64,000 bases of DNA from Chloroflexota bacterium (GTDB lineage: Bacteria; Chloroflexota; UBA11872). Under the pieces are notes generated by a model, which ran no database searches, was not told where the DNA came from, and worked only from the letters and a program-made list of their open reading frames with translations. Numbering within the stretch: the stretch's first letter is position 1; each line of letters begins with the position of its first letter. This document shows positions 21,309 through 43,696 of this stretch, piece by piece. Location: assembly GCA_026707285.1 (NCBI GenBank), contig JAPOXD010000034.1, positions 3,807 through 67,806 on the forward strand, read 5' to 3'. The position numbers and the translations under genes were made by a program.

Positions 21309-24002
21309 TCACGGGTTTCTTGGGCGTCGCCCTGGGAACCGCAGGGCGGAGCAGCAACGAGAGAAGTCAATACCGGTGACGATGAGGCTCGCCGCCACTC
21401 CTCCGGCGGTGACGGCGGCGATGGCGATGCCGAGGTCATACCAGCGCTGGGGGGCGTACTCGAACGTGATCGCGGAGTCTTCGGAAACCGGCAGGAAATA
21501 GCCGTTCCAGAGTCCGTCCGCGAGCAGCGGGGCGAATGCTTCGCCCTCCACCCAGGCCAGCCAGGCGGGGTCGTAGGCCCGGCGGAGGACGATGAAGGCC
21601 CAGCCGCCGGCGCCGCGCGCGGTGGCTTCGATGCGCGTGGGCTCACGCGTCGAGACTTTCAGGCGCGGCTGGGGCAGCGCGAACGAGGCCGGTGAGATCG
21701 CGGGACGCCAATCGGTGGGCGCGAGGGCCAGGGTGCTCACGGCTTCGAGCCCGGGACCGGCGGTCACGCCGATGTCGCCATCCGTCGCGGCCCCGACCCG
21801 CATCCACCGCCAGCCGGTGGTCGGCGACGTGGTGGCGAGCCGCGCGCTGGAGTTGGCGGTCGCAACGTCGATCCAGGTCGAGCGCGGGCTGGTGAAGACC
21901 CGCAGCCAGACGGCGCGGTCGCGATCGTCGGGAACGCGAATCCGCAGCGCCTCACGCTCGCCTTCGGGCGTGGCGAATGCCAGACCCAGGCCGTAGTCCG
22001 ACGCCCAGTCGTGGAGGTCCTCCCGCCCAAGCCGCTTGAGCCAGGACTGCCGCTCATCCGCGTATGCCCCGCCGCGGGTCCAGCCACCTCGCGAGCCGTG
22101 GTAGCCAAACCAGCCGGTGACGGGCATCAAATCGACGTTGTCGGCGACGGCGAAGACTGCGTCTGTGGTTGGCTGCGCCGGGGAGACCGCGTCGGGCAGC
22201 GACGGACGCACCCGGTGGTTGGCCAGGACGCGCGTGACGCCGGCCGGGGCGGCAACGTCGAGGGTGTCGCTCCAGACCGCGCCGGTGGCTTCGAGCAGCG
22301 GCGCGGCGGCGCCGAGATCAACCGCGAGTGCGTTTGGGCCGGACGCCAGGACGGCAGCGTCGGGCAGTGCGGCGAGGGCCGCGGCCAGCTCGTCACCGCT
22401 CGGCTGGTCGCGCATCACCACCGCGTGGCTGAAACCCGCGCGTTGGGCAGCGGCGAGCGCCTCGGCAGGCTCGACGCCGTAGATGTATTCGATCCATCGA
22501 CCGGGGACGGGCGACGGCGGCGCCGGCGAACGCGTGTCGCCGGTGAGGGATGGGTTTGCCAGGCTCGCCGCCTCCATCAGGCGCAAGGTGCGCGCCGGGT
22601 CCCAAGGCGCGGGCCGGTCGTCGGAGGACGCGACCAGGATTCGACCCTCGGGCCCCGCGGCCGCGTCCGCCGCCCGCAACACGTCGCGATAGTCCGCCGG
22701 CAGGGGACGCGGGACATATCCGGGTTGATCGGTGCTCCACAGGAGCGGCACGGCGGGGACCGCATGGACGCCCAGAGCAAGAACGACATAGCCCGCCAGC
22801 AGTGAAGGGCCGAGCGCGCTTCGCGTCCACCCGCCGGCCCCAATCCGGCTCAATAGATCGGCGACCACAAATCCGGCGCCGAAGGCCTGCGCCATGATCA
22901 GCAGGCCGACCACCCGGTCTGGTTCACGAAAGACCCACAGGCCGGGAACGGCATTCACGGCTGCCTGATAGGTATCCGCCGTGAGCGACCAGTTCGATGC
23001 GGCCGCGACCACGGCCGCCGCATACCCTCCGACGGCCAGAAAAAGCGCGGGCGGTCCCCAGCGGCGGAGGGCAACGGCCGCCAGCGGCATCACCGCCACC
23101 GCCCAGCCGGCGAACTCCCAGGGCAGCCGGCTGGCGGCCGGGGGAATCAAGAGTCCATGCCAGTTGGCATTCGCGGCTCCCTGGAGCGTGGTCGGAAGAT
23201 CCTGGTGATGCGCGAGCACCGTGCGGGTTTGGTCCATGAGGGTGTATGCCGGATCGGGACTGCCCCCGTAGAGCTTGACGGCGACATACGGCGCGATCTG
23301 GTAGGCCAACAGCGGGACGACCGCCGCCGACCACACGAGGCCGTCGGCCAGCGCCCGGCGGCGCTTGACGGGGCACTGCACCATGGTGCCGACGACCCAC
23401 GCGGCAATCATGAGCGTGGTGAAGACCAGGTAGTGGGGCTGCGCGGCGCCCAAGAGCGCGAAGACGAGGGCGGACGCAACCGTCCAGCGCCGCTGCGCGG
23501 TTCGCGTGCCCTCGAGATAGAGCGCCAGGACGAGCGGCGCCGCCGCCCATTGAGCCAGCAGCCAGCTGTGCTCCAGGCGCGCGATGGTCCAGGGATTGAC
23601 CACCAATGCCACCGCCGCGACCATGGCCCCCATGGCTGCGGCGGTGCGAGGAATCTCAGTGCGCCAGCGGGCGAACAGCGCGAAGGCCGCAAAGGCGCTG
23701 ACGTATCCAACGCCCGCGATCCACAGCACGATCAGGCGGGCATACGTCGCGCCGTCCAGGCCAAGCGCTTTGGCAACGCCCACGAGTGTGAGTGTGATCG
23801 GCAGGCGTCCGGTGCCCGCGATGCTCAGCGTGTCGCGCGGCGACCACAGGGGATAGACGCTGTGCTCGACGACGCGATCCAGGAAGAGCGAGGGATAGAG
23901 ATCACGCTGCTGCAAGTCGCCGGGGGTCGTGATGACGGCCCAGAACACGGCCACCACAATCAGCGCGCCGGTGCCGAAGGCCAGCGCCCAGGGGCTGGCC
24001 AT
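21309..24002 (-). CDS. large polytopic membrane protein, distant member of family A (putative GT-C-like glycosyltransferase)
   Basis: About 897 aa from MASPWALAFG; the ORF extends to 24065, but that would collide with the divergent gene. The N-terminal multi-TM region carries the NPW...PL and PHY motifs shared with family A. A large C-terminal extracytoplasmic domain follows. Confidence 0.55.
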   Translation of the reverse strand: MASPWALAFGTGALIVVAVFWAVITTPGDLQQRDLYPSLFLDRVVEHSVYPLWSPRDTLSIAGTGRLPITLTLVGVAKALGLDGATYARLIVLWIAGVGYVSAFAAFALFARWRTEIPRTAAAMGAMVAAVALVVNPWTIARLEHSWLLAQWAAAPLVLALYLEGTRTAQRRWTVASALVFALLGAAQPHYLVFTTLMIAAWVVGTMVQCPVKRRRALADGLVWSAAVVPLLAYQIAPYVAVKLYGGSPDPAYTLMDQTRTVLAHHQDLPTTLQGAANANWHGLLIPPAASRLPWEFAGWAVAVMPLAAVALRRWGPPALFLAVGGYAAAVVAAASNWSLTADTYQAAVNAVPGLWVFREPDRVVGLLIMAQAFGAGFVVADLLSRIGAGGWTRSALGPSLLAGYVVLALGVHAVPAVPLLWSTDQPGYVPRPLPADYRDVLRAADAAAGPEGRILVASSDDRPAPWDPARTLRLMEAASLANPSLTGDTRSPAPPSPVPGRWIEYIYGVEPAEALAAAQRAGFSHAVVMRDQPSGDELAAALAALPDAAVLASGPNALAVDLGAAAPLLEATGAVWSDTLDVAAPAGVTRVLANHRVRPSLPDAVSPAQPTTDAVFAVADNVDLMPVTGWFGYHGSRGGWTRGGAYADERQSWLKRLGREDLHDWASDYGLGLAFATPEGEREALRIRVPDDRDRAVWLRVFTSPRSTWIDVATANSSARLATTSPTTGWRWMRVGAATDGDIGVTAGPGLEAVSTLALAPTDWRPAISPASFALPQPRLKVSTREPTRIEATARGAGGWAFIVLRRAYDPAWLAWVEGEAFAPLLADGLWNGYFLPVSEDSAITFEYAPQRWYDLGIAIAAVTAGGVAASLIVTGIDFSRCCSALRFPGRRPRNP

Positions 24003-24070
24003 CCGCCCGCCAAGCCGCCAGAGGGCCGGCAGCGGCGATCGGCTGCGACCTGGGCGGCGAGTCACGGCCG

Positions 24071-24820
24071 ATGATGTTACGGCGATTTGGGGTGGCGCCG
24101 GGTGTGCTGGCGGCTTTGAGTGTAGTCGCGGCCGTGGCGGCGGCCCTGGCGCTGGGAGGCGCGGAACGCCAGTGGCCGGCGTTCCCGACCTACGCCTTCA
24201 ACCTGGAGTTTGGGCCCGCGTTTGCCGCCGGCAGCCTGGAACAGACATTCGCCGCTCCCGCCACGCCGCTGCGCCGCATCGAGCTGCGCGCGGTCAGCCC
24301 GTGGCCCGAGACCGTCACGGTTCGGGTGCGCGATGTCGGCGATCCGGCGGCCGAGGTGCTGGTCGAGGCCAGCGTTGGGATTGCCGCCGACGGCGCGATA
24401 CGACTTGATCTTCCGGGGACGGTGGATACGAGCGAACGGTTCCTACAGATTCAAGTCGTCAATCCGCCCGAGTCATCCACGCCCTTAGCGCTCCAGGCCA
24501 ATCACACCGACCCCTATGGCGGCGGACAAGCCGCCATCGGCAGCGACCCCGGCACGGGTTCGGTTGACCTGGTGCTACAGACCTGGCGGCGTGTCACGCC
24601 AACGGCGCTTGCGCTGGAGGTGCTGCGCGCAAACGCACTCGGCGCACTCTTCGCGCTGATGTCCCTAGTGGCAGTCGCCGGTCTGGCGCTGGCCTGGGGC
24701 TGGCGTCGGTTTAGCGACCGATCACGATCGGTGGCGGCTGCAGCTACGTTTCTGTGCATCGCGGTGGGACTTGGGCTGCTGCGCGTCGGCTTCGAAGTCC
24801 TCGCGCCCTGGGCGACCTGA
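24071..24820 (+). CDS. membrane-anchored hypothetical protein (companion-like: N-terminal TM, ~180-aa domain, C-terminal TM)
   Basis: 249 aa. AFNLEFGPAFAAGSLEQ after TM1 resembles the F.LGP..GS.TQ motif of the companion family. Divergent from the 21309 gene. Confidence 0.45.
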   Translation: MMLRRFGVAPGVLAALSVVAAVAAALALGGAERQWPAFPTYAFNLEFGPAFAAGSLEQTFAAPATPLRRIELRAVSPWPETVTVRVRDVGDPAAEVLVEASVGIAADGAIRLDLPGTVDTSERFLQIQVVNPPESSTPLALQANHTDPYGGGQAAIGSDPGTGSVDLVLQTWRRVTPTALALEVLRANALGALFALMSLVAVAGLALAWGWRRFSDRSRSVAAAATFLCIAVGLGLLRVGFEVLAPWAT

Positions 24821-25845: not shown

Positions 25846-25923
25846 AGCAGTATGCCGAAGCTCCCCCTGAGCGAGTCGACTGGCTACCCGAACCACATCG
25901 CGGGACCCTGGGCGTGAGAACTC

Positions 25924-27159
25924 CTAGGCGTCGTTGCCGGACTTGCCGCCGTTGTCGGCGTCGAATCCATATTGCTGGACGATCACGTCCACGTTTCGCT
26001 CGGAGAACCGGCGCTCAGCCTCGGCGCGCGCTTGCTCGCGGAGCGCGGTCAGACCGGCGCCATCAGCCAGCATGTCCTGCAGTCCGGCCATGAACGCCTC
26101 GGCGCACGGCTCAACGAGCCGGCCGATCTCGGGAGTCACGGCTTCTCGCAGACCACCGAGGTTGCTCGCGACGATTGGCGTTCCAGCCGCGCTGCCCTCG
26201 AGCACTACGATCCCCGCCGCCTCTTCGTACTGCGACGGCACCAGCAGCAGGTCAGCCGCGGCATACATCGACGCGATGGTGTCGAGGCGTTCGGCTGGCG
26301 GGCCGGACGGATCCTGCATGAGCGTCAAGTTTGGCGACGCCGTTGAAGCCTCCGCGACCTCGGCTCCCATGTCACCTTCGGCGCCCAGCATCCGGAATTG
26401 CACGTTGGGCAGCCGCCGCGCGAGATCGAGAACGATGCCCACACCCTTCTTGCGCAGGAGTCGGCCAACAAAGAGACAGGTGGGCGCCGACTCCGGCCAC
26501 CCGAGCTTGGCACGAGCTTCGACTTGGCTGCGCGGCCGAAATACCTCGAGGTCGACCCAGTGCTGGTGGGCGGTGACGCGTGCCGGATCCAGCCCGATGG
26601 CGACAAGCTCCTGCCGGGACGCCTCGCTCACGGTCAGCACCCGATCGGCGCGCCCGAGCAGGGAACGCACGGCTTGCGCCAGCACCCGGCGCTGCCGCAG
26701 CTCGTAGATCGCGTGCATGCTGACGACGATCGGCTGTCGCGCGCCGGTCCAGCGCATGCCCAAGGCGGCCACGGCGGCGGCCAACCCGTGCGCGTGAATG
26801 ACGTCAAAGCTGTCGCTATGACGTATCCGGTGTCGAATGGCGCCCGCCAGCAGGCCGGGCACCAGGTAGGCGAACACCAGCGGCGCGTATGGTTCGATGC
26901 GCGGATGCCATCCGCGCCCAAACCATGGAATGCGGATGACTTCGCCGTTTGGGAGCGGCTCGCGCGATGGGGCCTTCACCGGAGCGACCAGCGGTTGGTG
27001 CGTGAGGAGCGTGACGCGGGTGTTTCGCCGCGCGAGCGCGGCGATGAGCGCGTCGATGTGCGTCTCGACCCCGCCACGATTGGGCGAGGCGAACGGTGAC
27101 AGCATGAGCACACGCCGACGGTCGCGGGGGTGGGCGTCGCGCGCAGCCGGCGTCATGTG
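25924..27159 (-). CDS. GT4-family glycosyltransferase
   Basis: Start at MTPAARD (27159). The GT-B C-terminal domain carries the E-x7-E region (EEAAGIVVLEGSAAGTPIV). Confidence 0.75.
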   Translation of the reverse strand, partial: HMTPAARDAHPRDRRRVLMLSPFASPNRGGVETHIDALIAALARRNTRVTLLTHQPLVAPVKAPSREPLPNGEVIRIPWFGRGWHPRIEPYAPLVFAYLVPGLLAGAIRHRIRHSDSFDVIHAHGLAAAVAALGMRWTGARQPIVVSMHAIYELRQRRVLAQAVRSLLGRADRVLTVSEASRQELVAIGLDPARVTAHQHWVDLEVFRPRSQVEARAKLGWPESAPTCLFVGRLLRKKGVGIVLDLARRLPNVQFRMLGAEGDMGAEVAEASTASPNLTLMQDPSGPPAERLDTIASMYAAADLLLVPSQYEEAAGIVVLEGSAAGTPIVASNLGGLREAVTPEIGRLVEPCAEAFMAGLQDMLADGAGLTALREQARAEAERRFSERNVDVIVQQYGFDADNGGKSGNDA

Positions 27160-27875
27160 ACTGCGGCCGGCCCGTGCATGAGGGCGATGACGAGAGCCGC
27201 GGTCACGCCGCCGCTCAGCGCCAGTGCCGCCGGCCGTCCGAACCGTCGCCGGTCGAGCGACGACCACGCAGCGCGCCCCACCACGGTTCCCACCAGCAGG
27301 GCGACGGCGAGGCCGACGCCGAGATAGAGCGGCGACTCGGTTGCCTGCACTCGAAGTCGTGTGAGCGCACCGGCGTGGCCGGAGGCCGAAAAGGCCAGAT
27401 CGACGTCAATCGGCGATCGGCCCAGCTGATCGACAAGCTGCCCAGCCGCATACGCATCGTTTCCCGTCGCTCCAACATAGAGTTCCGCCGGGGAGTCTTC
27501 GAGCGCGACGACCCGAATGGCCAGCGGTCCGGCCGGAAAGTCTACCGAGGCGATCGAGATTGAAACCTCCTGGAGCTCAGTGCTCGGCGGCGCCTCGATG
27601 CGAGCCGACCGGAGCGGTGGGCCATCCTGGGAACGCAGGAGGTGAATGTCCGCGTGCGCTGCGGCACCACCTTCACTCCGCGCCCAGATGGTCAAGGTGT
27701 CGATGGGGCCGCCAGCGAAGTCGACCGACTGCGTGATCGAGCCAACGAGCGGTCCGAGCCCAAAGCTCGGCGCCACCGGATTCTTAGCGGTGGTCAGCGG
27801 CTTCCATCCCAGGCCGACCGCGGCCCCGAGCATCAACACCAGCACCGTGGCGAGGAGCCAGACGGCGATCCTCAT
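27153..27875 (-). CDS. companion membrane-anchored protein of family-A gene (conserved family; N-terminal TM, extracytoplasmic domain, C-terminal TM)
   Basis: 240 aa from MRIAVWLL. Its ATG overlaps the upstream stop (ATGA at 27872-27875). Motif is PSFGLGPLVGSITQSVD. It is a paralog of 46533..47255. Confidence 0.55.
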   Translation of the reverse strand: MRIAVWLLATVLVLMLGAAVGLGWKPLTTAKNPVAPSFGLGPLVGSITQSVDFAGGPIDTLTIWARSEGGAAAHADIHLLRSQDGPPLRSARIEAPPSTELQEVSISIASVDFPAGPLAIRVVALEDSPAELYVGATGNDAYAAGQLVDQLGRSPIDVDLAFSASGHAGALTRLRVQATESPLYLGVGLAVALLVGTVVGRAAWSSLDRRRFGRPAALALSGGVTAALVIALMHGPAAVT

Positions 27876-29947
27876 GGACGCCAACCACCTGGCCGCGGCC
27901 GGCGCGGCCACAGTGTCCACGCGCCCCATGCGAAGAGACCCGCCCACGCTAGGGCGTGGCCCGCCAGAAACGCCTGGTGCAAGCGATATTCGAGGACCAG
28001 ACGGCCAAAGGCGCCGGCCTCCGTGCGGACGCGCAGCAGGTCACGCTCGGACGGTTCAACCATCGCGGCATGGCCCGGCACGTGAGCGGTCCAGAGTGGA
28101 TCCCAGTGTTCCTGGGTGACAATTTCGCGCGCATGCTCTCCGGCTGGCGGTAGGTCGATGACAAGGCGATGCGTGCCCTCGCGCCTCCACGGTAGCTCAA
28201 TCGGTCCACGGGGACTTGCCACGTAGACCCAGGGATACGCCGGCTCGACCGTGCGAAACAGCTCGTAGTAGTCCGCGGTCAGCTCAAGCGCGAGGCCTTC
28301 GGTCCGGCGCAGAGCTTGGGCAAGCTCCCGACCGCGGAGCGTGCCCGTTGGAACGAGCACCCGGGACACCCCATGGGCGCGAAGAGTGTCGGCGAGGGCG
28401 GGAGGGCCGGCTCCGACTAGCGACACGAGGCGGTCACCGACCAGCGAGTTTTCCGTCGCGTAGGGCGTGGTGACGGAAAGAATCTCGGCGGCGTGCAGGA
28501 CGCGGTGTTGCTCCGACCACTCGGGAAAGCGAAGTGGCCACGCCGCCAACAGCGTGCGCGATGCCTCGGCGGCGTTCTGTCGGTCAATCTCCGCCGGCAC
28601 TGTGCGAAACGACGCCGGGAACCGCTCCGGCACAAGGCTCAGCGACTGATCGTCCCAGAGCATGCGATGGATTCCGGGCGCCATGAAGGCCGCCAGCACG
28701 ATCCCAAGGACGGCAGTCTGAATCGTTGCCGCAACGGGCAGACGGCGCGGAGCGCATCGAACAAATGTCGCTGGAGCGAGGGCCAGTCCGGGTAGATAGG
28801 CCAGGGCCAGCGCGCCGGAGAGCTTGTCCGGCTCTCTGAGCGCCCATCCGAAGGGCGCATTTGCGGCGACGGCCAGGTAGCCGGGCCGCAGCGCCTCGTG
28901 CCAGCTGGCAATTTGAATGAAAACGGTGGCTCCGCCGACGATGGCGGCGTATCCCAGCACGCGGCGCTGACCGGGTTGTCGCCAAAACACCATCGCCAGC
29001 AAGGCAGCCGGAATGAAAGCTGCCATACGCCAGCCGGGTAAGGCCGTCGTCTCGGGCTTTAGGCCCGGACCGAAGAACGTGTGCCCGGTTAGGGTGAGGG
29101 TGTTGATGACGGTTTGGCCGCTCTCGAGCACCGGCTGGACATCGGTTCCTTCGGCGTACCTCGGTCCGGTGGGCGATCCGGCAACCGCCGTGACCAGGAG
29201 CGGTACGAGGATGAAGGCGGCGAAAATGGCAAAGCCGCCGAGGAACACCATGGCCGCGGCGACGATTGGGTGGCGGGGGTCGCGAGTGGTGAAGGCGGCG
29301 TAGGCCAACCACCCGAGGCCCACGAGCAGGCCAATTGCCATGTAGTGCGGCGAGGTGGAGACGGCAAAGGCCAGCACGGCGGCCGCCGCCAGCGCCCGGT
29401 GGACGCGGGAGCGAGCGGTGGGCGCGCGCGTCGCCACCACGACGAGACCGAGCACAAGCGGGAGGAGCACGGCGCTCACGTGCACCCCCAGCTGCTCCCA
29501 TCGCGCCAGAGCCCAGGGATTGAGTGCCCAAAACAGTCCGGCCAGCATCAGGCCGAGGCGTATCGCAACGGGATGCGTGACTCGGATTTCCGGCCCCGCC
29601 ATCAATCGTGCCCCCAGATATCCGGCGAGAAACCCGAGGAGGTGCCAGCTCAGCCAGTGGAACTTGCCCGCCGCCTCCGTGGTCAAATCAAACGCCTGAA
29701 TGAGCAAGCCCCAGGGAACGTAGGAGTAGGTGCGCATGACATTGACAAGCCCGGTGCCGTATGAGGTATCCCAGGCACTGGTGAACCGACGGGTCCAGAA
29801 CTCGTTGGCGAATGGATAGCCGAGATCGCCCTGAATGATTTCGCCCGGGGTCGCGACGACCCGCCAGCCCGCGACGAGGGTGAGTAGCAGACCGAGCACA
29901 ATCCAAGCCGAATCGCGGGCCAGCAGCCGGGCGATGTGGGTGGTCAT
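27872..29947 (-). CDS. family-A polytopic membrane protein A1 (putative GT-C-like glycosyltransferase)
   Basis: 691 aa with about 12-13 TM helices. Has an acidic first loop (GDLGYPFANEFW), the NPWALARWEQLGVHVSAVLLPL and SPHYMAIG motifs, a large C-terminal domain and a C-terminal hydrophobic anchor. Confidence 0.6.
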   Translation of the reverse strand: MTTHIARLLARDSAWIVLGLLLTLVAGWRVVATPGEIIQGDLGYPFANEFWTRRFTSAWDTSYGTGLVNVMRTYSYVPWGLLIQAFDLTTEAAGKFHWLSWHLLGFLAGYLGARLMAGPEIRVTHPVAIRLGLMLAGLFWALNPWALARWEQLGVHVSAVLLPLVLGLVVVATRAPTARSRVHRALAAAAVLAFAVSTSPHYMAIGLLVGLGWLAYAAFTTRDPRHPIVAAAMVFLGGFAIFAAFILVPLLVTAVAGSPTGPRYAEGTDVQPVLESGQTVINTLTLTGHTFFGPGLKPETTALPGWRMAAFIPAALLAMVFWRQPGQRRVLGYAAIVGGATVFIQIASWHEALRPGYLAVAANAPFGWALREPDKLSGALALAYLPGLALAPATFVRCAPRRLPVAATIQTAVLGIVLAAFMAPGIHRMLWDDQSLSLVPERFPASFRTVPAEIDRQNAAEASRTLLAAWPLRFPEWSEQHRVLHAAEILSVTTPYATENSLVGDRLVSLVGAGPPALADTLRAHGVSRVLVPTGTLRGRELAQALRRTEGLALELTADYYELFRTVEPAYPWVYVASPRGPIELPWRREGTHRLVIDLPPAGEHAREIVTQEHWDPLWTAHVPGHAAMVEPSERDLLRVRTEAGAFGRLVLEYRLHQAFLAGHALAWAGLFAWGAWTLWPRRPRPGGWRP

Positions 29948-32698: not shown

Positions 32699-34498
32699 AT
32701 GACCACCAAGCCAATCGTCACTCTCGGCATTCACGAGGGACTGATGGCCGCGGCCGCCCTTGTGGTGGATGGCGAGCTCCGCGCTGCATGCGCCGAGGAG
32801 CGTCTCACACGCAAAAAGAATCAAGCCGGAATTCCCCTGCGTGCGATCGAGACGGTGCTGGCAACAGCTGGCCTTTCCATCGACGACGTCACCATGATCG
32901 CGCCCAGCACGCAGGACGCCATCATCCCGACGATTGACGACATGCCGACGTCCCAGACGACGTGGCGGTTCTACGATGCCTACGGCCTTGGCGGAAGATT
33001 GCTCGCGTCGATCGAGCGGCGCTGGCCGGCCAGCCGGGCACTGACGGTGCCGTCCGATTTTGCCCGCCGGCTCGGCCGACGATTGCTCCAGCGCACCCGC
33101 GCCGCCGCCATCAGCGCGGCAACCGGCGCCGATGCGCAGCGGATGGTGTCCTACGACCACCACACGTCGCACGTCATGGCGCTGGCGGCGGTAGCCGGTT
33201 CCGAGCAGCAGCTTGTCTTCACGCTGGATGGCGAGGGCGACGGGCTGAGCGGCTCGGTTTCGTGGTTCCGCGCCGGCCAGCGGCCCGAGCTGATCGGCTC
33301 CGTCTCTCGCAATGCTTCGCTCGGGCACATCTATGCCGGCGTGACCGGACACCTGCGCATGAGATCGCACCAGGACGAATTCAAGGTCATGGGCATGGCG
33401 CCATACGCCCACGACAGCGCCCGCGACGCCTGTCGTGACCGTCTGCGATCTCTGCTCTGGGTGGAGCGAGATTCGGCCGGAACACCCGACATCAAGTCCT
33501 CGCGCGGCACGCGCCTCGCGCCGCGATTCATCGGCGACTACGTGCGAGACTTTCGCTTCGACACCCAGTGCGGGGGCGTGCAGGCACTCTGCGAAGAAAC
33601 CATTCTGGAGTGGACGTCGGCTTGGGTACGGCACCTCGGCCTCGACCACGACGGCGTGGACGTCGGACTTGGCGGCGGGGTTTTCATGAACGTCAAGGCC
33701 AACATGCGAATTGCGCAGCAAGCCTGGGCCAACTCGGTCACGCCGGTGCCCAGTTGTGGCGACGAGTCTTGCGCCGTCGGCGCGGCCTTCCTCGCGTACC
33801 TGGACGCCTGCGCGGCGACTGGACGCGACGCGCAGTTTCAGCGGGCCAACGATCTCTATCTCGGTCCCGCGTGGAGCGACGCCGACATCAGGCAGACCGT
33901 CGATCGCGCGAGCGCCGCGCACGGGCTCCACGTGGAACGCCCAGCGGATATTTCGGACCGGACTGCAGCGTTGCTAGCCGACGGCCACGTCGTCGCGCGC
34001 TTTTGTGGACGCATGGAGTGGGGCGCCCGCGCCCTGGGCAACCGCTCCATCCTGGCCGACCCCTCCCGGCACGACAGCGTGCGCGAGATCAACAAGCGCA
34101 TCAAGAGCCGCGACTTCTGGATGCCCTTTGCGGCCACAATTCTCGCCGAGGCGGCGTCCACCTATCTGCAGACGCCGCCCGCCCAGTCTTCGCCGCACAT
34201 GATGCTCGCCTTTGACACCGTACCGGAGCGCTGGCACGAGATCGCTGCCGGGACGCACCCATACGATCGGACCTGCCGGGCGCAGATTCTCGAGCGCCGG
34301 GCAAATCCGGAGTACTACCGTCTGATCGAGCGCTTTCGCGATCGCACCGGAATCGCCGCCGTGCTCAACACCAGCCTGAACTTGCATGGCGAGCCGATGG
34401 TGAACTCACCGGACGACGCGCTTGGAACACTCCTTGACAGCGACCTCGCGTTCCTAACGCTCGAGGACTTCCTCATCAGCAAGCCGACGCCCGCGTAG
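32699..34498 (+). CDS. carbamoyltransferase (NodU/CmcH/NovN family)
   Basis: About 599 aa from MTTKPIVTLGIHEG; the ORF track starts 33 nt earlier. Has Carbam_trans N- and C-domain architecture (YDHHTSH, MNVKANMRI). Confidence 0.75.
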   Translation: MTTKPIVTLGIHEGLMAAAALVVDGELRAACAEERLTRKKNQAGIPLRAIETVLATAGLSIDDVTMIAPSTQDAIIPTIDDMPTSQTTWRFYDAYGLGGRLLASIERRWPASRALTVPSDFARRLGRRLLQRTRAAAISAATGADAQRMVSYDHHTSHVMALAAVAGSEQQLVFTLDGEGDGLSGSVSWFRAGQRPELIGSVSRNASLGHIYAGVTGHLRMRSHQDEFKVMGMAPYAHDSARDACRDRLRSLLWVERDSAGTPDIKSSRGTRLAPRFIGDYVRDFRFDTQCGGVQALCEETILEWTSAWVRHLGLDHDGVDVGLGGGVFMNVKANMRIAQQAWANSVTPVPSCGDESCAVGAAFLAYLDACAATGRDAQFQRANDLYLGPAWSDADIRQTVDRASAAHGLHVERPADISDRTAALLADGHVVARFCGRMEWGARALGNRSILADPSRHDSVREINKRIKSRDFWMPFAATILAEAASTYLQTPPAQSSPHMMLAFDTVPERWHEIAAGTHPYDRTCRAQILERRANPEYYRLIERFRDRTGIAAVLNTSLNLHGEPMVNSPDDALGTLLDSDLAFLTLEDFLISKPTPA

Positions 34499-35572
34499 CC
34501 AGGAGACCGCCGGCACCACCGCTGCGGCCAGCAGCGCCCAAGCGCCAGTGAGGACGGCCAAGGCCGTCGCCACATCAATTGCATCCTGGGTTACCGCCGC
34601 CGCGGCCGCACCGCCGAGCGGCACCGGCGCCAAGTACCAGTGGCGCACCGCCGTGACTGCCGCCTGCCAAAGGGCGCGCACGACGCTCGCCGCGCTGGCG
34701 ACTGCCACTCTCGGCGCTGTGATTAGGATCACCCCGGCGCCAACCAGCACCAGGATCGGGTATGCCACCAGTGCGGCCATGCCGGTCGGCGTCAGCCCGC
34801 GCAGCACACCGATCGGCACACCCGCATCCAGCGGCACACTTAGGTGAATCACCGCCACAAACAGCCAGATCGCCAGCGCGGTCAGACCGATCAGTGCGGT
34901 GACTGCGGCTACGAGGCGCCCGTAGAGGCGCGCCAGCAGCACGGTCGTCATCGCGCCGCCCAGCGCCCCGAGCACTGCCACACCAGCCGCCACGGCCACC
35001 GTCCATCCCTCAATCGCGCCCACCACGGCTTCCAGATGTCGCACCGGCGGCACTCGCTGGAACATCCGGTGGCCCAACGCCAAGAAGCCCCGCAGCGGCT
35101 CCCCCATGATCGTCAGTTGGGTCCGCGCGGTGGCCTCTCCGATGTCGGCGCCCCGCAGCAGCACGCCACCCCCCGGCGCCTCCAACACCCGCACCGCCAG
35201 GCGGTAGCTCGCCCCATCCGTCGGCACCGCAAACGTAGCCACGTACTCCCGCATCCCCTGCCCGGTCAGCCGCAGCCGGTCCGCCCAAAGCACCAGCTCA
35301 CCACGCTCTAGCCGTACCTCCACCAGGGCCGGCCCCACCACATTCCCTGTCGGCTGCGCCTCAAATCCCACGAACAGCTCCGGACCCGCCTCCGGTCGAA
35401 GCTCCTGGCTCAGGCTCCATCCCGGCAGCAATGGTCCAATGCCGAACGGCTCGCCCTGAACCCCGCCAACGATCAGCGGCCCCGCCGGCCAGCTCAGCGC
35501 CGCCACCGCACTGAGAACGGCCAACACCGCCCAAACGAGCGGGGCAATCGGGCGTCGCCGCACCATCGTCAT
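34454..35572 (-). CDS. companion membrane protein of family-B gene B1
   Basis: 372 aa from MTMVRRRP. Its ATG overlaps the upstream stop (ATGA at 35569-35572). Has an N-terminal TM, the PFGIGPLLPGWSLSQ motif, and a C-terminal multi-TM region. Confidence 0.5.
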   Translation of the reverse strand: MTMVRRRPIAPLVWAVLAVLSAVAALSWPAGPLIVGGVQGEPFGIGPLLPGWSLSQELRPEAGPELFVGFEAQPTGNVVGPALVEVRLERGELVLWADRLRLTGQGMREYVATFAVPTDGASYRLAVRVLEAPGGGVLLRGADIGEATARTQLTIMGEPLRGFLALGHRMFQRVPPVRHLEAVVGAIEGWTVAVAAGVAVLGALGGAMTTVLLARLYGRLVAAVTALIGLTALAIWLFVAVIHLSVPLDAGVPIGVLRGLTPTGMAALVAYPILVLVGAGVILITAPRVAVASAASVVRALWQAAVTAVRHWYLAPVPLGGAAAAAVTQDAIDVATALAVLTGAWALLAAAVVPAVSWLRGRRLADEEVLER

Positions 35573-38500
35573 CGCCGCCACCGTTGGCGCGACACCGGCG
35601 CCCATCCGATCACGATCATGCTGAACAGAACGACGAGGTTGGTCATCAATATCCAAAAATAGCCCGCGTTCGGCGTGAAGGTGACCGTCAGCTCATCTCC
35701 AGCCGCCAATTCCGCGAACCAGCCGTTGAAATGCCCGTCGAGCACCACATGACGCTCCTTGCTCACTTCTTCCCCATTGACGTGCAGCACCCAGCGTGGG
35801 TCGAACCGCTCGTCAAGCCGCACCAGCCGTTCCCCCGCCTCCCCCGAATACTCTGCCGAGGCCCAGCCGCGTTCGTCTCCCGTGAGGGACAGCGCACCAC
35901 CTCCGGCGGTGGTTTGCTGTCCCTCATGCGCGAGGATTACGGACAGGCCATGCGGCAACGGCGACGCCTCCACCCGCAGCAACTCGAACCGGAGACCCGG
36001 CAGTCCCTTGCGGATGTGGGCGACATCGAGCGTCGCCACGGACGCTCCGGGATCAAGCGGGACCTCGACTCGCACCTCACGGTCTACCTGATAGGCCTCT
36101 TCGCGCTGAAGCGTGTAGGTGATGTTTGGATACAACTGTTCGCCGATCAGGTGGACGCCGTCGACTCCGGTGTCAACCCGACCGACAAAGGCAACGGTTC
36201 GGCCGTCGGAAGGCACGGTGGCTTCCACGCGCACCGCGCCGTCGCACACCGCCGAGTCACACGCCTGAAAGCCCTCAGCCGCCAGCGGTTGGTGAGTGAC
36301 GCTGACAACCGGCTCGGGCGGCGGCGAGCCCCGCAGCACCAGCCGGTGCGGGCCCGCATCGAGTGTGACCACCCCGGTGAGAATGTCGAAGCCGGCCTCG
36401 GTCTTCGCACGCTCCAGCGGAAGCGGCGCACCGTCGATGGCGAGCGTCGGCTCGAGACCGGGGTGGGCGGCGAGGCGAACCGAATACGTGCCGGAGCGGG
36501 CCAGCCGGAAGTTGCGCTCGCCGCCGGTGGTCCCGAGGTCCGAAAGCACGGTGTAGACCGGCAGCTGGTCAAGCGCCCGCTCCCCCGCCCGCTCGGCAGC
36601 TTCGATTGCCGCCGACGTGAACAGCCCCAGTTGCGAAACCGCATTGAGGCCAAGACCGTCGGATCTGATTTCCACGACGTGCTGGCCGGCGCCGCTCGTC
36701 GGCGCCGCCACCCGCGTCCAGCGATAGCCGTAGCCCGCCGCTTCCCGCGTTTCAATCCGTGCAATGAACTGACCGTTGAGCGAAACCGCAAGGGCGCTTC
36801 CCTCGGGGCTCACGAAGTGGCGGATCCATAGCTCCCTGGTCGCTCCAGTTGTGTCCACGGTGACTGTCAAAGCCACACCGTCGGCGCGCGTCAGGAGCCC
36901 GCGCGTCATGTCCGCGATCTCGGGATCGGCATACCACCAGGCATTCTTGTAGGGGGCCACCCAGTCCAACGTGGCGTCGGGAAGCTCTGGCCACACCTGA
37001 TCCGCCGGACTCACCAGCGCGCCCTCGGGCAGATAGTTAGCCGTCAGGTCCAGCGGATCCGCTCCCAGCCAAACCTCGGAGGCGGCGTGCACGGCGCCGC
37101 CCGGAGCACCATCAATGCCCGCCACGCCCAATTGGCCGCTGGCGGTGGTGACCTTGGCCGGGTCGTCGAACATGTGCCAAGCCGTGACGAGCGGGCGCAA
37201 CGAGGGCGACCCAACAAGAATCCGCACGGGCAGGCTCAGCCGTTGAGCCGGCAGCGTCGTGACCTCGTAAAGCTCAACCTCACCCACCGATAGGTCATCG
37301 AGTCGACGCAGGCCGGGCTGTTGCGCCAGCGCCAGCCGCGGGCGTGGCTGGCGCTCTTGCAATGCCAGCCACGGTTCGCCCGTCGCCTGAATGAAGCCGG
37401 CGTGCGCGCTCACCCAGTGCGGGTCGAGCATGACGTTCCGAAAGCGTCCATGCGCCAGGAGGCGATCAATGGGATACCGGTTAGGGCCATAGAACCCCTG
37501 ATTGAGCGTGGCGATATATGGGCCGTTGAGCGTGGAGGACGCCCCGCCCCAGATCGAACGCTTGGGCGGCTGCAGAACGGGCGGCGGATTGCCCTGGCTG
37601 GAGTTTTGCCCGGTGCGGCTCTCGTAACTGCTCGGCCAAAACATGGGCAAGTGGACCATGCGATCGTTGTGGGGGAGAGCCCGCAGGTTGTCGACGACGG
37701 CGACCGTGTCGGCATCGAATCGGTAGGTGCGCAGGTGACCCGCGAGGTCTCCGCTCCAGAACGGGAGCGTGCTCCCGGCAATCACGGCGCCCACAAAGAC
37801 ATTGCCCGCCGTTCGTTGCAGCGCGGGCGGCCGCGCCACGAGGTGGGCAACCGTTTGCCCCACCAGCAAAGCCAGCAGCAGCCCGGCTGCAGCGGTGAGA
37901 TAGCGGATGTTTCGGAAGATCGCGCCCATCAGCGTGGCGTCAACTCCATCCTGAATGACGGAGAACGGCTCGTTGAACCCCTTGCCGATCAGCACCAACG
38001 CAAGGAACCCGAGCAAGCCCACCATCGCCTGCTGTCGCGCCGGTCCACGCAGCAGGACCGGAGCCGCAAGCGCCAGACCGGTCAGCATGCCGCGGGCAAT
38101 GAGCCGGATGCCACTGACCGGAGCCAGCGGGCCCACCGGATCTTGCGAGTAGTTGTAGGGCGCGCCGGTCAGCGTCAGCGCTTCCGCGAACGTCGGCGCC
38201 GCCCCCTTGATCCACTGCGCGGCAGCTTCGATGCTCCAGGCGGACATGACCTGGTTGGCCGAGGGCACCACGATGAGCTGCCAGGAAATGAAGGCGATGG
38301 CCTGATGCAACAGAATCACGCTCAGGCCCATCGCCGCCACAATCCCCAAGCGCCGCAGCCGCTGGCCGCGCGAGCCGGAGGCGGTGAAGGCTCGGAAGAG
38401 CGCATAGATGCCAACGAGGCCGGTTACGACGAAAGCCATATGGATCGAAGCCGCGGCCAGCCCGATCCACAGGCTGCCGCGAACGAAGCCGCGGCCACTC

Positions 38501-39096
38501 GGCACCCGATCGAACACCTCGTGCGCCACCTGCACCGCTTTGGGAAGAAACGCCACGCCCAGAAGCAGGCCGAAGTAGCCAGCGACGAAGGAATCGAGGA
38601 AGAACGGCGTAGTCATATAGACGGTTGACGCCGAGAAAGCCCCCGGCCGACCCATACCTAGACGCTTGGCCGCCTGGTACATGAACACGCCACCCAGGGC
38701 GATGAAGATGATCGAGATACGGGACGTGAGCCAGCCATCCACGCCGGGGAGGAGCGTGAGGCCTCCCAGAAGGAGCATGAGGTACTGGCTCATCGCCCGC
38801 TCTTCCTCGGACGAACCAAAGAAGTTCGTCTGCCAGGCCGACAGGCGATCGATAGCGAATTCGGTGTTCTGCCAGTCGGTCGGCGGAATGGTCCAGTCGT
38901 CGCGCAGCCCGAGGTAGTCCGGGTTGAAGATCACGCCGCGGTGCCAGATGAGCACCAGCAGCAGAATGGCGATGTAGGCAGCCGCGTCCGGGTGGCGCGC
39001 GATCAATTGCTTGGCCGACGCAAGGGCACGCCGCGCACCCGGGAGAGACGGTGAGCGAACGCCCGGCTCCGCCGTGGAATCGAGACTAACGCTCAC
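35569..39096 (-). CDS. family-B polytopic membrane protein B1 (1175 aa; putative GT-C-like glycosyltransferase)
   Basis: About 13 TM helices in the first ~430 aa. An acidic motif LRDDW sits in the long first extracytoplasmic loop. A ~700-aa extracytoplasmic domain and a C-terminal TM anchor follow. Roughly 80% identical to B2. Confidence 0.65.
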   Translation of the reverse strand: MSVSLDSTAEPGVRSPSLPGARRALASAKQLIARHPDAAAYIAILLLVLIWHRGVIFNPDYLGLRDDWTIPPTDWQNTEFAIDRLSAWQTNFFGSSEEERAMSQYLMLLLGGLTLLPGVDGWLTSRISIIFIALGGVFMYQAAKRLGMGRPGAFSASTVYMTTPFFLDSFVAGYFGLLLGVAFLPKAVQVAHEVFDRVPSGRGFVRGSLWIGLAAASIHMAFVVTGLVGIYALFRAFTASGSRGQRLRRLGIVAAMGLSVILLHQAIAFISWQLIVVPSANQVMSAWSIEAAAQWIKGAAPTFAEALTLTGAPYNYSQDPVGPLAPVSGIRLIARGMLTGLALAAPVLLRGPARQQAMVGLLGFLALVLIGKGFNEPFSVIQDGVDATLMGAIFRNIRYLTAAAGLLLALLVGQTVAHLVARPPALQRTAGNVFVGAVIAGSTLPFWSGDLAGHLRTYRFDADTVAVVDNLRALPHNDRMVHLPMFWPSSYESRTGQNSSQGNPPPVLQPPKRSIWGGASSTLNGPYIATLNQGFYGPNRYPIDRLLAHGRFRNVMLDPHWVSAHAGFIQATGEPWLALQERQPRPRLALAQQPGLRRLDDLSVGEVELYEVTTLPAQRLSLPVRILVGSPSLRPLVTAWHMFDDPAKVTTASGQLGVAGIDGAPGGAVHAASEVWLGADPLDLTANYLPEGALVSPADQVWPELPDATLDWVAPYKNAWWYADPEIADMTRGLLTRADGVALTVTVDTTGATRELWIRHFVSPEGSALAVSLNGQFIARIETREAAGYGYRWTRVAAPTSGAGQHVVEIRSDGLGLNAVSQLGLFTSAAIEAAERAGERALDQLPVYTVLSDLGTTGGERNFRLARSGTYSVRLAAHPGLEPTLAIDGAPLPLERAKTEAGFDILTGVVTLDAGPHRLVLRGSPPPEPVVSVTHQPLAAEGFQACDSAVCDGAVRVEATVPSDGRTVAFVGRVDTGVDGVHLIGEQLYPNITYTLQREEAYQVDREVRVEVPLDPGASVATLDVAHIRKGLPGLRFELLRVEASPLPHGLSVILAHEGQQTTAGGGALSLTGDERGWASAEYSGEAGERLVRLDERFDPRWVLHVNGEEVSKERHVVLDGHFNGWFAELAAGDELTVTFTPNAGYFWILMTNLVVLFSMIVIGWAPVSRQRWRR

Positions 39097-40168: not shown

Positions 40169-43100
40169 TCACCGACGCCACCACCGGCGTGGCGCCGGCG
40201 CCCAGGCAACCACAATCATTGCCACCAAGAAGCCCAGGTTCGCCACGAGTATCCAGAAGTAGCCGATGTTTGGCGTGAAGGTGACCGTCACCTCGTCTCC
40301 GGCCGCCAGATCCACGAACCAGCCGTTGAAGTGCCCATCGAGCACCACGTGACGCGCCGCGCTCACTTGGTCGCCGTTGACGTGCAACACCCACCGCGGA
40401 TCAAACCGCTCGTCCAGCCGCACCAGCCGCTCATTCGCCTCGCCTGTGTACGTGGCCGCCGCCCAGCCGCGCTCGTCGCCCGTCAGGACCAGGTCGCCAC
40501 GGCCCGGAGCGGCTCGCCGCCGCTCGTCGGCCAGCACCACGGTTAGGCCATGCGGCAACGGCGATATCGCCACCTCCAGCAACTCAAACTCCAGGCCGGG
40601 CAGCTGCTCGTACAAATGCGCGACATCGAGGGTGGCGGTGCCCGAGCCCGGATCGAGCGGCACCTCGACTCGCACGAGGCGGTTGTGCTGTCCGGCCTCC
40701 ACACGATGGCGTTCGCGCGTGATTTCGGGATAGACCTGGACGCCGCTGGCGTAGGCGTCGTCGGCGCCCGCAGTGACGCGGCCTAGAAAGGAGACCGTGC
40801 GCCCGTCGGACGGCACGTTGGCTTCCACGCGCACCGGGCCCCCGCATACGTCGGTCTCGCAGGGTTGAAACCCCTCCGCCTCCAGCGTGTGGTGGGTCAC
40901 GCTGACGACCGGCGCGGGCGGCGGCGGCGCGCGCAGGGTCAGGCGATGCGCGCCGGGCGCAAGATCCGCCACCCCCTCGAGGATGTCGTAGCCTGCCTCG
41001 GTCCTCACGCGCTCCAGCGGCACTTCCGCGCCATTGATCGCCAACGTCGGGTGCACGTGCGGCGGGGCCGCCAGCCGCACCGTGTACGCCCCGGCCCGTG
41101 CGAGCCGGAACGTACGCTCGCCGTCAGTCGTTCTCAGGTCCGGCAGCACGGTGAACACGGGCAACCGCGACAGCGCCTGCGTCGCCTCCCGCTCGGCGGC
41201 CGCAATCTCTGCCGTCGTCAGCAGGCCCAACTGCGACACAGCGTTGAGACCAGGGCCGTCGCTTCGAACCTCCACGACTCGCTCGCCTGGGCCGCTCGTC
41301 GGCGCCTCCACCCGCGTCCAGCGATAGCCGTAGTCCGCGGCCTCGCGCGTCACAACTCGCGCCACCGGTTGGCCATCGAGCATGATTTCGAGCGCCCCGC
41401 CTTCCGGGCTCACGAAGTGGCGGACCCAGAGCTCACTGGTCGCGCCGGGCGAATCGACGGCGACCGTAAATGCTGCGCCGTCGGCTCGGGTCAGGAGTCC
41501 GCGGGTCATGTCCGCGATCTCGGGATCCGCATACCACCAGGCGTTCTTATAGGGCGCTACCCATTCCCGCGTGGCGTCCGGGACCTCCGGCCACACCTGG
41601 TCCGCCGGACTCACCAGCGCGCGCTCGGGCAGATAGTTGACTGTCAGGTCCAGCGGATCCGCCCCCAGCCAGATCTCCGAAGCGGCGCGAACAGCGCCGC
41701 CCGCAGCCCCGGTGATTCCTCGAACGCCCACCTCGCCGCCGGTGAGCGTCACGGATCTTGCATCGCTGAACATGTGCCAGGCCGTGACGAGCGGACGCAG
41801 CGAGGGCGACCCGACGAGAATCCGCTCGGGAATGCCCAGCCGTTGCGCCGGGGGCGTCACGACGTCGTACAGCTCAACTTCACCCGCGGACAAGTTGTCA
41901 AGGTGGCGCAGTCCGGGTTGTTGCACCAGCGCGAGCCGCGGGCGCGGGCGCTGCTCTTGCGACGCCAGCCACGGCTCACCGGTTGCCAAGATCAGGCCGG
42001 CGGGCGCGCTCACCCAGTGCGGATCGAGCAGAACATTCCGAATCCGGCCAAACGCCAGCAGGCGGTCGATGGGATACCTGCTGGGGCCGTAGAGCCCCTG
42101 ATTGAGCGTGGCGAAATAGGGCCCATTGAGCGTCGAGGACGCCGAGCCCGAGATCGAGCGCTTGGGCGGCTGCACGACCGGCGGGGGGTTGCCGCGGCCG
42201 GAGGAATGGCCGGTGCGGCTCTCGTAGCTGCTCGGCCAGAACATTGGCACGTGCAACATCCGGTCTTCGTGGGGCAGCGCGCGCAGGCTGTCCAGCACCG
42301 CAACCGTATCCGGGTCAATCCTGTACGGGCGAAGGTGGCCGCCGAGGTCGCCGCTCCAAAACGGAAGAGTGCTTAGCGCCGCCAGGACGCCAATCAGAAC
42401 GCCGGCCGCGGCCCGTGGCAGCTCCAATGGCCGCGCGGCGAGGTGGGCCACCGTTTGCCCTACCAGCAGGGCCAGCAGCAGCCCGGCCCCGACGGTGAGA
42501 TAGCGGACATTCCTGAAGATCGCGCCGATCAACGTGCTGTCGAGCACATCCTGAATGACGGGCAGCGGCTCGTTGAAGCCCTTGCCGATTAGCACCAGCA
42601 CGATGAACCCGAGCAGCGCCATCACCGCCTGCCGCCGGGCCGGCCCGCGCAGCAGAACCGGGGCCGCGAGCGCCAGGCCGGCGAGCATGCCGCGGGCAAC
42701 GAGCCCGACGCCACTGACGTGGGCGAGGGGACCCTCGGGACTCTGGGAATAGTTGTAGGGGCTGCCGGTCAGGGTGAGGGCTTCGGCGAGCGTCGGCGCC
42801 GTTCCCTTGATCCATTGGGCGGCGGCTTCAATGCTCCAGGCCGACATGACCTCGTTGGCCGAGGGCACCACGAGGAGTTGCCAAACGATAAAGGCGATCG
42901 CCGGATGCAGGAGGACGACGCTGAGCCCCATGGCGGCGACGAGCCCGAGGCGCCGCAGGCGCTGCTCGCGAGAGCCCGACGCCGTGAACGTGCGGAAGAG
43001 CGCGTAGGCGCCGACCATTGCGGTCGTGATGAAGGTGAGATGTATTGAGCTGGCGGCCAACCCGATCCAGAGGCTGCCGCGGACAAAGCCGCGCACGCCC

Positions 43101-43696
43101 GGCGCGCGATCAAAGGTCTCGTGCGCAACTTGCACCGCCTTTGGCAGCAGCGCGACGCCGATGAGCATGGCGGCATAGCCGCTGATGAACGCGTCGAGAA
43201 AAAAAGGCGTCGTCATGTAGACGACGGCGGCCACGAAGGACCCCGGCCGGCCCATGCCCAGGCGCTTCGCCGCCTGGTACATGAAGACGCCGGCGAGCGC
43301 GAGGAAGACGATCGATACGCGCGACGTCAGCCACCCGTCGACCCCCGGAAGCAGCACCAACGCTCCCAACGTGAGCTGCAGGTATTGGGTCATCGCCCGC
43401 TCTTCCTCGGACTGCCCGAAGTAGTTGGTCTGCCAGGCCGAGAGTCGATCGAGGGCGAAGTCGGTGTTCTGCCAGGCGGCCGGCGGCGTGGTCCAGTCGT
43501 CGCGCAGCCCCAGGTAGCCGGAGTCGAAAATCAGGCCCCGGTGCCAGATCACCACCAGCAGCAGGATGGCCACATAGGCAGTCGCGTCCGGGTGGCGGTC
43601 GATCAGCCGCCCAATCCACGCGGATGCCCGTTTCAGCGCCCCCGCCGGCAGAGAACGACCGCCGTGCTCCGCAGCCGGAGCTGCGCTTACGCGCAT
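40169..43696 (-). CDS. family-B polytopic membrane protein B2 (1175 aa; putative GT-C-like glycosyltransferase)
   Basis: Same length and architecture as B1, with conserved LRDDW, AWWYADPEIADMTRGLLTRADG and a C-terminal anchor. Confidence 0.65.
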   Translation of the reverse strand: MRVSAAPAAEHGGRSLPAGALKRASAWIGRLIDRHPDATAYVAILLLVVIWHRGLIFDSGYLGLRDDWTTPPAAWQNTDFALDRLSAWQTNYFGQSEEERAMTQYLQLTLGALVLLPGVDGWLTSRVSIVFLALAGVFMYQAAKRLGMGRPGSFVAAVVYMTTPFFLDAFISGYAAMLIGVALLPKAVQVAHETFDRAPGVRGFVRGSLWIGLAASSIHLTFITTAMVGAYALFRTFTASGSREQRLRRLGLVAAMGLSVVLLHPAIAFIVWQLLVVPSANEVMSAWSIEAAAQWIKGTAPTLAEALTLTGSPYNYSQSPEGPLAHVSGVGLVARGMLAGLALAAPVLLRGPARRQAVMALLGFIVLVLIGKGFNEPLPVIQDVLDSTLIGAIFRNVRYLTVGAGLLLALLVGQTVAHLAARPLELPRAAAGVLIGVLAALSTLPFWSGDLGGHLRPYRIDPDTVAVLDSLRALPHEDRMLHVPMFWPSSYESRTGHSSGRGNPPPVVQPPKRSISGSASSTLNGPYFATLNQGLYGPSRYPIDRLLAFGRIRNVLLDPHWVSAPAGLILATGEPWLASQEQRPRPRLALVQQPGLRHLDNLSAGEVELYDVVTPPAQRLGIPERILVGSPSLRPLVTAWHMFSDARSVTLTGGEVGVRGITGAAGGAVRAASEIWLGADPLDLTVNYLPERALVSPADQVWPEVPDATREWVAPYKNAWWYADPEIADMTRGLLTRADGAAFTVAVDSPGATSELWVRHFVSPEGGALEIMLDGQPVARVVTREAADYGYRWTRVEAPTSGPGERVVEVRSDGPGLNAVSQLGLLTTAEIAAAEREATQALSRLPVFTVLPDLRTTDGERTFRLARAGAYTVRLAAPPHVHPTLAINGAEVPLERVRTEAGYDILEGVADLAPGAHRLTLRAPPPPAPVVSVTHHTLEAEGFQPCETDVCGGPVRVEANVPSDGRTVSFLGRVTAGADDAYASGVQVYPEITRERHRVEAGQHNRLVRVEVPLDPGSGTATLDVAHLYEQLPGLEFELLEVAISPLPHGLTVVLADERRRAAPGRGDLVLTGDERGWAAATYTGEANERLVRLDERFDPRWVLHVNGDQVSAARHVVLDGHFNGWFVDLAAGDEVTVTFTPNIGYFWILVANLGFLVAMIVVAWAPAPRRWWRR

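Follow-up and report, generated by a model that had tools for sequence, protein, structure and literature searches.

Glycosyltransferases of the GT-C fold build most extracytoplasmic glycans, among them N- and O-glycoproteins, mycobacterial arabinan and lipid A modifications. To our knowledge, how such enzymes choose long polymeric acceptors has been worked out only for a small number with fused carbohydrate-binding modules (CBMs), such as AftD and EmbC, and the cell envelope of uncultured Chloroflexota is essentially uncharacterised. Here, we analyze a stretch of 64,000 nucleotides (nt) from a Chloroflexota bacterium (assembly GCA_026707285.1, contig JAPOXD010000034.1, positions 3,807 to 67,806), referred to as the window, in which several genes for large membrane proteins stand next to a gene for a small membrane-anchored protein, the companion. 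We consider with moderate confidence that the companion is a membrane-anchored, CBM-like accessory subunit of GT-C enzymes that build a cell-surface glycan. This is supported by the predicted GT-C fold of the large protein B27, the predicted fold and transmembrane (TM) architecture of the companion, its adjacency to two GT-C sequence families, an apparent fusion, the co-duplication of both genes and the glycan context.

GT-C enzymes with a small accessory subunit are known from eukaryotes, where PIG-X stabilises the GT-C enzyme PIG-M in the glycosylphosphatidylinositol (GPI) mannosyltransferase I. PIG-X is unrelated in sequence to the companion, and its role is to stabilise the enzyme and not to bind glycan. 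A closer parallel is the mycobacterial arabinofuranosyltransferase D (AftD; DUF3367; PDB 6wbx), which has three CBMs and extra C-terminal TM helices in one chain, with the CBMs binding long arabinan acceptors (bioRxiv 10.1101/2019.12.22.885152). Taken together, B27 and its companion have the modules of the single AftD chain: the GT-C core and its outer domain, a domain of beta-sandwich or CBM-like type, and additional TM helices at the C-terminus. For EmbC, the C-terminal domain is described as a lectin-like CBM, a beta-sandwich on the outer face of the GT-C enzyme that is thought to hold the polysaccharide acceptor (PMC3044687). This CBM is fused, is not anchored in the membrane by itself and has no sequence relation to the companion. 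Galactose-binding-like jelly-rolls of families CBM6, CBM35, CBM36 and CBM32 resemble the companion at the level of the fold, while no Pfam CBM matches it in sequence. Known CBMs are appended to secreted hydrolases, whereas the jelly-roll of the companion is flanked by TM helices.

The concept is thus a familiar one, since GT-C enzymes are already known both with CBMs and with small accessory subunits. Neither in the sequence libraries nor in the literature searched did we find a CBM-like partner of bacterial GT-C enzymes that is a separate protein with its own membrane anchor. Judged by sequence comparison, the B27-type GT-C proteins and the companions are two protein families without representation in Pfam, NCBIfam or the PDB. 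If the CBM-like module is indeed a separate, co-inherited protein, the pair would provide a genetically separable system in which the control of specificity and processivity by acceptor binding could be studied. The practical reach is limited, given a small and lineage-restricted family, uncultured organisms and a mechanism that is a proposed one.

Companion genes and their large neighbours

The companions and large genes of the window are listed below (aa, amino acids).

27153..27875, minus strand: companion C27, 240 aa, with a predicted N-terminal TM helix, outward beta jelly-roll and C-terminal two-TM hairpin
46533..47255, minus strand: companion C46, 240 aa, paralog of C27, GTGA overlap with B47
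24071..24820, plus strand: companion C24, 249 aa, probable divergent subfamily, transcribed divergently from B21
34454..35572, minus strand: C34, 372 aa, with an N-terminal TM segment, an F-x-I-GP...Q motif, a beta domain and at least five hydrophobic segments
49786..49878, minus strand: C49, companion remnant, 31 codons homologous to the TM1 region (tblastn, 31/31 codons)
27872..29947, minus strand: B27, 691 aa, predicted GT-C-fold membrane glycosyltransferase, outer domain of alpha/beta and beta-sandwich type, last TM helix 656-682
47252..49396, minus strand: B47, at most 714 aa, paralog of B27, start uncertain (the alignment with B27 begins at residue 24)
49875..52034, minus strand: B49, 719 aa, third B27-type paralog, without an intact companion
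21309..24065, minus strand: B21, at most 918 aa, distant B27-family member, outer domain longer than in B27, TM segment at the C-terminus
35569..39096, minus strand: B35, 1175 aa, membrane protein of polytopic type, outer domain large, TM segment at the C-terminus
40169..43696, minus strand: B40, 1175 aa, paralog of B35, no companion downstream

The original prediction, made from the letters of the window, described the companions as one family with a common motif, coupled by overlapping start and stop codons to three large genes. All three overlaps are present (ATGA at 27872-27875, GTGA at 47252-47255 and ATGA at 35569-35572). The motif is real as well: in an alignment of 23 non-redundant members, G41, P42 and Q49 are invariant and F38, G45, D140, Y142, G145 and D159 are conserved in 70-87%. 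The mutual homology differs in clarity between the copies. C27 and C46 share 49.6% identity over 238 aa (E 6e-71), an alignment that makes them unambiguous paralogs. C24 was left out of a C27/C46-clade profile, matches it with an hhalign probability of 81% (E 1.3e-5) and is a probable divergent member. C34, in which the C-terminus is longer and has several TM segments, probably belongs to the family as a divergent member too, but its match is weaker (hhalign E 0.011). It scores 29.4 bits against a hidden Markov model built without C34, and an 86%-identical ortholog retains only 7 bits after bias correction. BLAST aligns C34 over the TM segment, the motif and the first strands with the family member P0083 (E 1e-4), which reaches E 5.5e-8 to the family profile in an exhaustive search and has a long multi-TM C-terminus like that of C34.

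The truncated fourth copy proposed in the open reading frame (ORF) at 49627-49878 exists too, with companion sequence limited to the 31 codons of C49; past these codons the ORF runs to 49627 in unrelated sequence. The C49 region is identical to the B47/C46 junction at 314 of 315 nt. A tract of about 450 nt, consisting of the 3' ends of B49 and B47 and the first 93 nt of the companion, is 100% identical between 49786-50235 and 47163-47612, while outside this tract both large genes share 50-88% identity per 60-nt window. This pattern points to a recent gene conversion or unequal crossover, which would have left B49 with a 31-codon companion stub. Downstream of B40 we found no companion remnant; about 210 nt of non-homologous sequence (39957-40168) are followed by the gene of an FkbM-type methyltransferase.

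Spurious ORFs are abundant in the window, which has a GC content of 65-70%. The small ORFs could thus be artefacts, representing either one gene split by a frameshift or non-coding ORFs of high-GC DNA (67% GC for the window), and one relative is in fact a single fused protein. The ratio of nonsynonymous to synonymous substitution rates (dN/dS) between the companion and five orthologs is 0.21-0.37, and the companion genes are therefore real and under purifying selection. In addition, the stop/start junction recurs in 11 independent genomes, the companion has a confidently predicted fold of its own and both genes are separate in many assemblies. The artefact reading is effectively refuted by the 11-genome junction together with the dN/dS values, and we give it a negligible probability. 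An in-frame alternative start of the companion (MGRVD...) lies 54 nt upstream, at 27929 instead of 27875; the overlap of 4 nt presumes the downstream start codon and would otherwise be 58 nt.

Among the large proteins, B27, B47 and B49 are mutually 58-69% identical (B47: 58.7% to B27 and 68.8% to B49). B21 is related to them at BLAST E 1e-18 (to B49) and 26% identity (to B27), and scores 535 bits against a family profile that includes B21 itself. B35 and B40 are 74% identical to each other. They had been counted among the GT-C-like genes; no relation to the B27 family was detectable: B35 had no hmmsearch match to the B27-family profile, its hhalign E of 0.14 is not significant, and neither protein matched Pfam or PDB entries. 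A weak C-terminal similarity to B21 (E 3e-4) is the only link of B35 and B40 to the B27 group, and a GT-C fold is assumed for both.

Pairing, an apparent fusion and probable co-duplication

Conservation of the pairing in related genomes had been named beforehand as a test that could refute the prediction. The overlap is kept: in all 11 GTDB Chloroflexota species loci with a C27-type protein (metagenome-assembled genomes, MAGs; L009-L019, 65-82% identity, found with close alignment), the TGA of a B27 homolog overlaps the ATG or GTG of the companion. Locus L001, from a related genome, keeps the cluster arrangement as a whole, with a 1175-aa gene and a C34-like gene, a 691-aa and a 240-aa gene (4-nt overlap) followed by GT4 and GT2 genes, and a B21-like gene (909 aa) from which a 249-aa gene is transcribed divergently.

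More divergent companions share 16-28% identity with C27. Relatives at 26-30% identity likewise adjoin homologous GT-C genes, and companions at 20-30% identity are found beside B27/B21-family genes in L003, L006, L008 and L024. At 11 distant loci, five adjoin or are fused to B27/B21-type genes and two adjoin PMT_2-type genes (one below the Pfam cut-off). The remaining ones adjoin other polytopic proteins (three) or none (one). The individual cases, apart from the fusion at L002 discussed below, are:

L003: P0076, after a B27-family gene, gap of 20 nt
L006: P0079, 4-nt overlap with the 3' end of a gene matching the C-terminus of the B27 family
L008: P0081, divergent from a B21-like gene (52% identity)
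L024: P0072, in the order B27-like gene, GTGA, companion, GT4
L022 (sample labelled TARA): P0086, 4-nt overlap with a downstream PMT_2/DUF2142 GT-C gene (39 bits, above the Pfam cut-off)
L005: P0075, overlap with the gene of a PMT_2-like protein (score under the Pfam cut-off)
L007: P0083, immediately upstream of a 630-aa protein that is unclassified and has nine hydrophobic segments; a B21-like gene lies 5 kb away
L021 and L023: P0080 and P0098, beside an 11-TM protein, in or near glycan clusters
L020: P0101, no GT-C gene nearby

The linkage might simply reflect operon packing in a narrow clade, with the companion being an unrelated membrane protein. The strictly conserved cases come indeed from fairly close relatives (L009-L019), in which synteny is expected, and ATGA overlaps are common in the operon. 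This explanation is nevertheless very unlikely: at 20-30% identity the companion and the GT-C gene are still adjacent, the enzymes belong to two GT-C sequence families, the genes occur in three arrangements and as a fusion, and the accession codes of the samples behind the distant cases are unrelated (one sample carries the label TARA).

The overlap itself carries less meaning than was first attributed to it. The stop codon of C27 overlaps the ATG of a gene for a cytoplasmic GT4 glycosyltransferase in the same way (ATGA, 27153-27156), making B27-C27-GT4 a chain of 4-nt overlaps, and L001 contains the same chain (10001-10723 followed by 10720-11952). The claim that tight coupling implies stoichiometric co-expression is weak in the light of the C27/GT4 junction, and is further weakened by C24/B21-type pairs that are divergent in three genomes and by distant relatives with the opposite gene order. 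Given the overlap with GT4, the divergent C24/B21 pair and the reversed order in L005, L007 and L022, the overlap alone is therefore no sign of a stoichiometric complex, and we rejected it as specific evidence of stoichiometry.

In the two PMT_2-associated cases of reversed order, P0086 and P0075 lie upstream of, and overlap, the PMT_2/DUF2142-type genes (L022, 81-1960; L005, 8001-10567). The divergent B21-type/C24-type pairs have start gaps of 5-62 nt (24065-24071 in the window, 13804-13837 in L001 and 2745-2808 in L008). Because only 5-62 nt separate the called starts, either each promoter is located within the coding region of the other gene or the true starts are further in.

A tie between particular proteins is suggested by P0078 (L002, 2209-5106), a protein of 965 aa in which residues 29-698 are B27-like and residues 720-964 form a complete companion. 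Both halves are joined by an Arg-rich linker and the frame is open across the junction. P0078 is thus an apparent in-frame fusion of a GT-C enzyme and a companion, amounting to Rosetta-stone evidence. A further large membrane protein is encoded on the L002 contig (6312-8393), and its first TM helix is followed by a ‘GDLAFGD’ segment like that of B27. An upstream gene of 413 aa on this contig was considered as C34-like and rejected, having no BLAST support.

The paralogous pairs have diverged together: B27 and B47 are 59% identical and C27 and C46 50%, whereas B21 shares 26% with B27 and C24 about 30% with the C27 clade. This co-divergence suggests that enzyme and companion were duplicated as a unit.

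These observations also bear on the possibility that the companion acts in the same pathway without being a subunit, for instance as a protein acceptor, as a membrane anchor or ruler for the polymer, or as the partner of an 11-TM export protein. The gene order and orientation relative to the GT-C gene vary, and the companion homologs of L021 and L023 have the 11-TM protein as their closest polytopic neighbour; a homolog of this protein is encoded in the window (43788-45131). We consider this role improbable, since the apparent fusion, the invariant 4-nt junction in 11 of 11 genomes and the co-duplication of the pair point to a one-to-one relation of the companion with a particular GT-C paralog, and the companion has no Ser/Thr-rich or sequon-rich segment.

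Predicted folds and proposed mechanism

None of the six large proteins has a Pfam or NCBIfam match at E ≤0.1, and a profile of 19 B27-family sequences has no sequence match in the PDB. In fold comparison, the B27 model scores 19.1 with AftD (6wbx; 554 residues aligned), 18.7 with STT3B, 18.5 with Pmt4, 18.3 with PglB, 16.5 with AftA, 12.0 with ArnT and 11.5 with AftB. The B27 type has the helix arrangement of GT-C enzymes in its polytopic N-terminal domain, followed by an outer alpha/beta domain. Directly after TM1 (12-32) there is a segment P34-G35-E36...D41..Y44-P45, in which D41 is invariant and E36 is present in at least 90% of 45 sequences. In GT-C enzymes the catalytic acidic residue is located at this place, and D41 is the predicted catalytic residue of the B27 family. 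As judged by the models, the B27 family consists of GT-C-fold enzymes that belong to no curated GT-C sequence family (Pfam PMT, PMT_2, DUF3367, STT3, etc.).

The companions have no match in Pfam and NCBIfam scans, and none in the PDB by profile or single sequence. The original prediction recognised no known domain in them, which holds at the sequence level; at the fold level a common jelly-roll is predicted. The AlphaFold2 model (mean predicted local distance difference test score, pLDDT, 88; predicted template modelling score, pTM, 0.78) contains a TM helix at residues 2-21, a beta domain of about 11 strands at 25-168, a short helix at 170-180 and TM helices at 182-207 and 213-233. The N-terminal TM segment and the ectodomain proposed earlier are thus found again, with two C-terminal TM helices in the model instead of one. 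According to this model, the ectodomain is a beta jelly-roll that resembles CBM6/35/36 modules. The fold is a generic one, and the top scores in the comparison were obtained with the baseplate protein of phage phi812 and the capsid protein P1 of PBCV-1.

Between the last two helices of the companion lies an R-rich loop (‘SLDRRRFGRP’). Under the positive-inside rule this loop would place the beta domain outside the cell. The residues D140 and Y142 are located in predicted loops, and the conserved Q49, D159, D140 and Y142 are compatible with a ligand site in the model. Sugar binding by the companion is therefore plausible as far as the model goes, and the suggestion that it is an acceptor-binding partner of the enzyme fits the predicted CBM-like jelly-roll.

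An exhaustive profile search of 1.84 billion representative proteins returned 30 companion clusters at E ≤1e-3, so the family is very small and lineage-restricted. Among P0087, P0091, P0096 and P0092, the jelly-roll is found C-terminal to an unrelated, unclassified polytopic N-terminal domain (401-487 aa), and once the order is signal peptide, jelly-roll and thioredoxin domain. Its occurrence on unrelated proteins indicates that the domain acts as a portable module.

In the mechanism that we propose, the GT-C enzymes would use lipid-linked donors to decorate or extend a surface glycan on the outer face of the Chloroflexota cytoplasmic membrane, with transfer by the B27-type enzymes being catalysed with the invariant Asp of the first outer loop. 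The companion would insert with its N-terminus inside, its jelly-roll outside and the positive loop between the last two helices inside, and would dock onto the enzyme through its TM helices. The last helix of the enzyme (B27 656-682) would bring the chain back to the cytoplasm just before the companion starts, and the companion TM helix would lead out again. The CBM-like jelly-roll, located beside the catalytic outer domain, could then bind and orient the acceptor glycan and present it to the active site. In function, the companion would then match the fused CBMs of AftD and EmbC, with the difference that it is provided in trans. The parts of this scheme that we infer are the association of both proteins, the topology, the binding of glycan and the nature of the donor and the acceptor.

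The companion could instead be a structural or stabilising subunit or an assembly factor of the GT-C enzyme, similar to PIG-X, with the jelly-roll serving as a protein-protein scaffold and no recognition of glycan. This is unlikely in our view. A ligand site fits the CBM6/35-type similarity and the conserved residues D140, Y142 and D159. The persistence of B49 and B40, which have no companion, speaks against a stabiliser that is obligatory, and the fusion of the jelly-roll to unrelated polytopic N-terminal domains and to thioredoxin points to a portable module.

Several observations weigh against a CBM-like accessory subunit. The jelly-rolls of phage baseplate, capsid and tumour necrosis factor (TNF)-like proteins match the companion as well as or better than CBMs do, and the companion has no sequence match to any CBM family (Pfam at E ≤0.1; PDB sequence search). 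B49 and B40 apparently function without an intact companion. The 4-nt overlaps are general in the operon, as the C27/GT4 junction illustrates, and the P0078 fusion is known from one metagenome contig with 3.7x coverage. Finally, P0101 (L020) adjoins no GT-C gene, and the companions of L021 and L023 adjoin the 11-TM protein of no assigned function instead of a GT-C enzyme.

A wider version of the accessory-subunit reading, which we put forward tentatively and regard as possible but somewhat doubtful, is that the companions form a class of trans-acting, self-anchored, CBM-like specificity subunits that pair one-to-one with particular GT-C paralogs and have been taken up by two or more unrelated GT-C sequence families (PMT_2/DUF2142 and the B27/B21 type, an orphan family similar to AftD). 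If true, acceptor recognition by GT-C enzymes would be a separable and exchangeable module and not a built-in property.

The surrounding glycan cluster

The region of about 21.3-54 kb is a glycan-biosynthesis cluster, mainly on the minus strand, and every close homolog of the genes studied comes from MAGs of uncultured Chloroflexota/Chloroflexi. The six large polytopic membrane proteins B21, B27, B35, B40, B47 and B49 are scattered through it. The other genes of the cluster are:

24826-25896: GT2 glycosyltransferase
25924-27156, 31139-32305 and 45192-46460: three GT4 glycosyltransferases
30140-31033: S-adenosylmethionine (SAM) methyltransferase
32666-34498, plus strand: carbamoyltransferase
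39219-39956: FkbM-type SAM methyltransferase
43788-45131, minus strand: unannotated protein of 447 aa with about 11 TM segments
52092-53816, minus strand: B12-type radical-SAM enzyme
53918-54952: further GT2 glycosyltransferase

The product of the cluster is probably a methylated and carbamoylated surface glycan of an uncultured Chloroflexota bacterium, and the GT2 genes are possible makers of polyprenyl-phosphate-linked sugar donors. The carbamoyltransferase gene is on the opposite strand within the otherwise minus-strand cluster, and L001 has two tandem copies at this place.

The 447-aa protein has no sequence match in Pfam, NCBIfam or the PDB. In L021 (43% identity, E 2e-79) and L023, its homologs are encoded directly beside genes of the companion family. 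The protein may serve the pathway as a flippase or exporter, or may be another partner of the companions.

The B12-binding radical-SAM enzyme has its top NCBIfam similarity to HpnJ, far under the model cut-off. It recurs in L023 (8506-10224), a distant cluster that also contains a companion homolog. This recurrence is a hint that the glycan may undergo C-methylation or ring contraction, either of which would be an unusual step.

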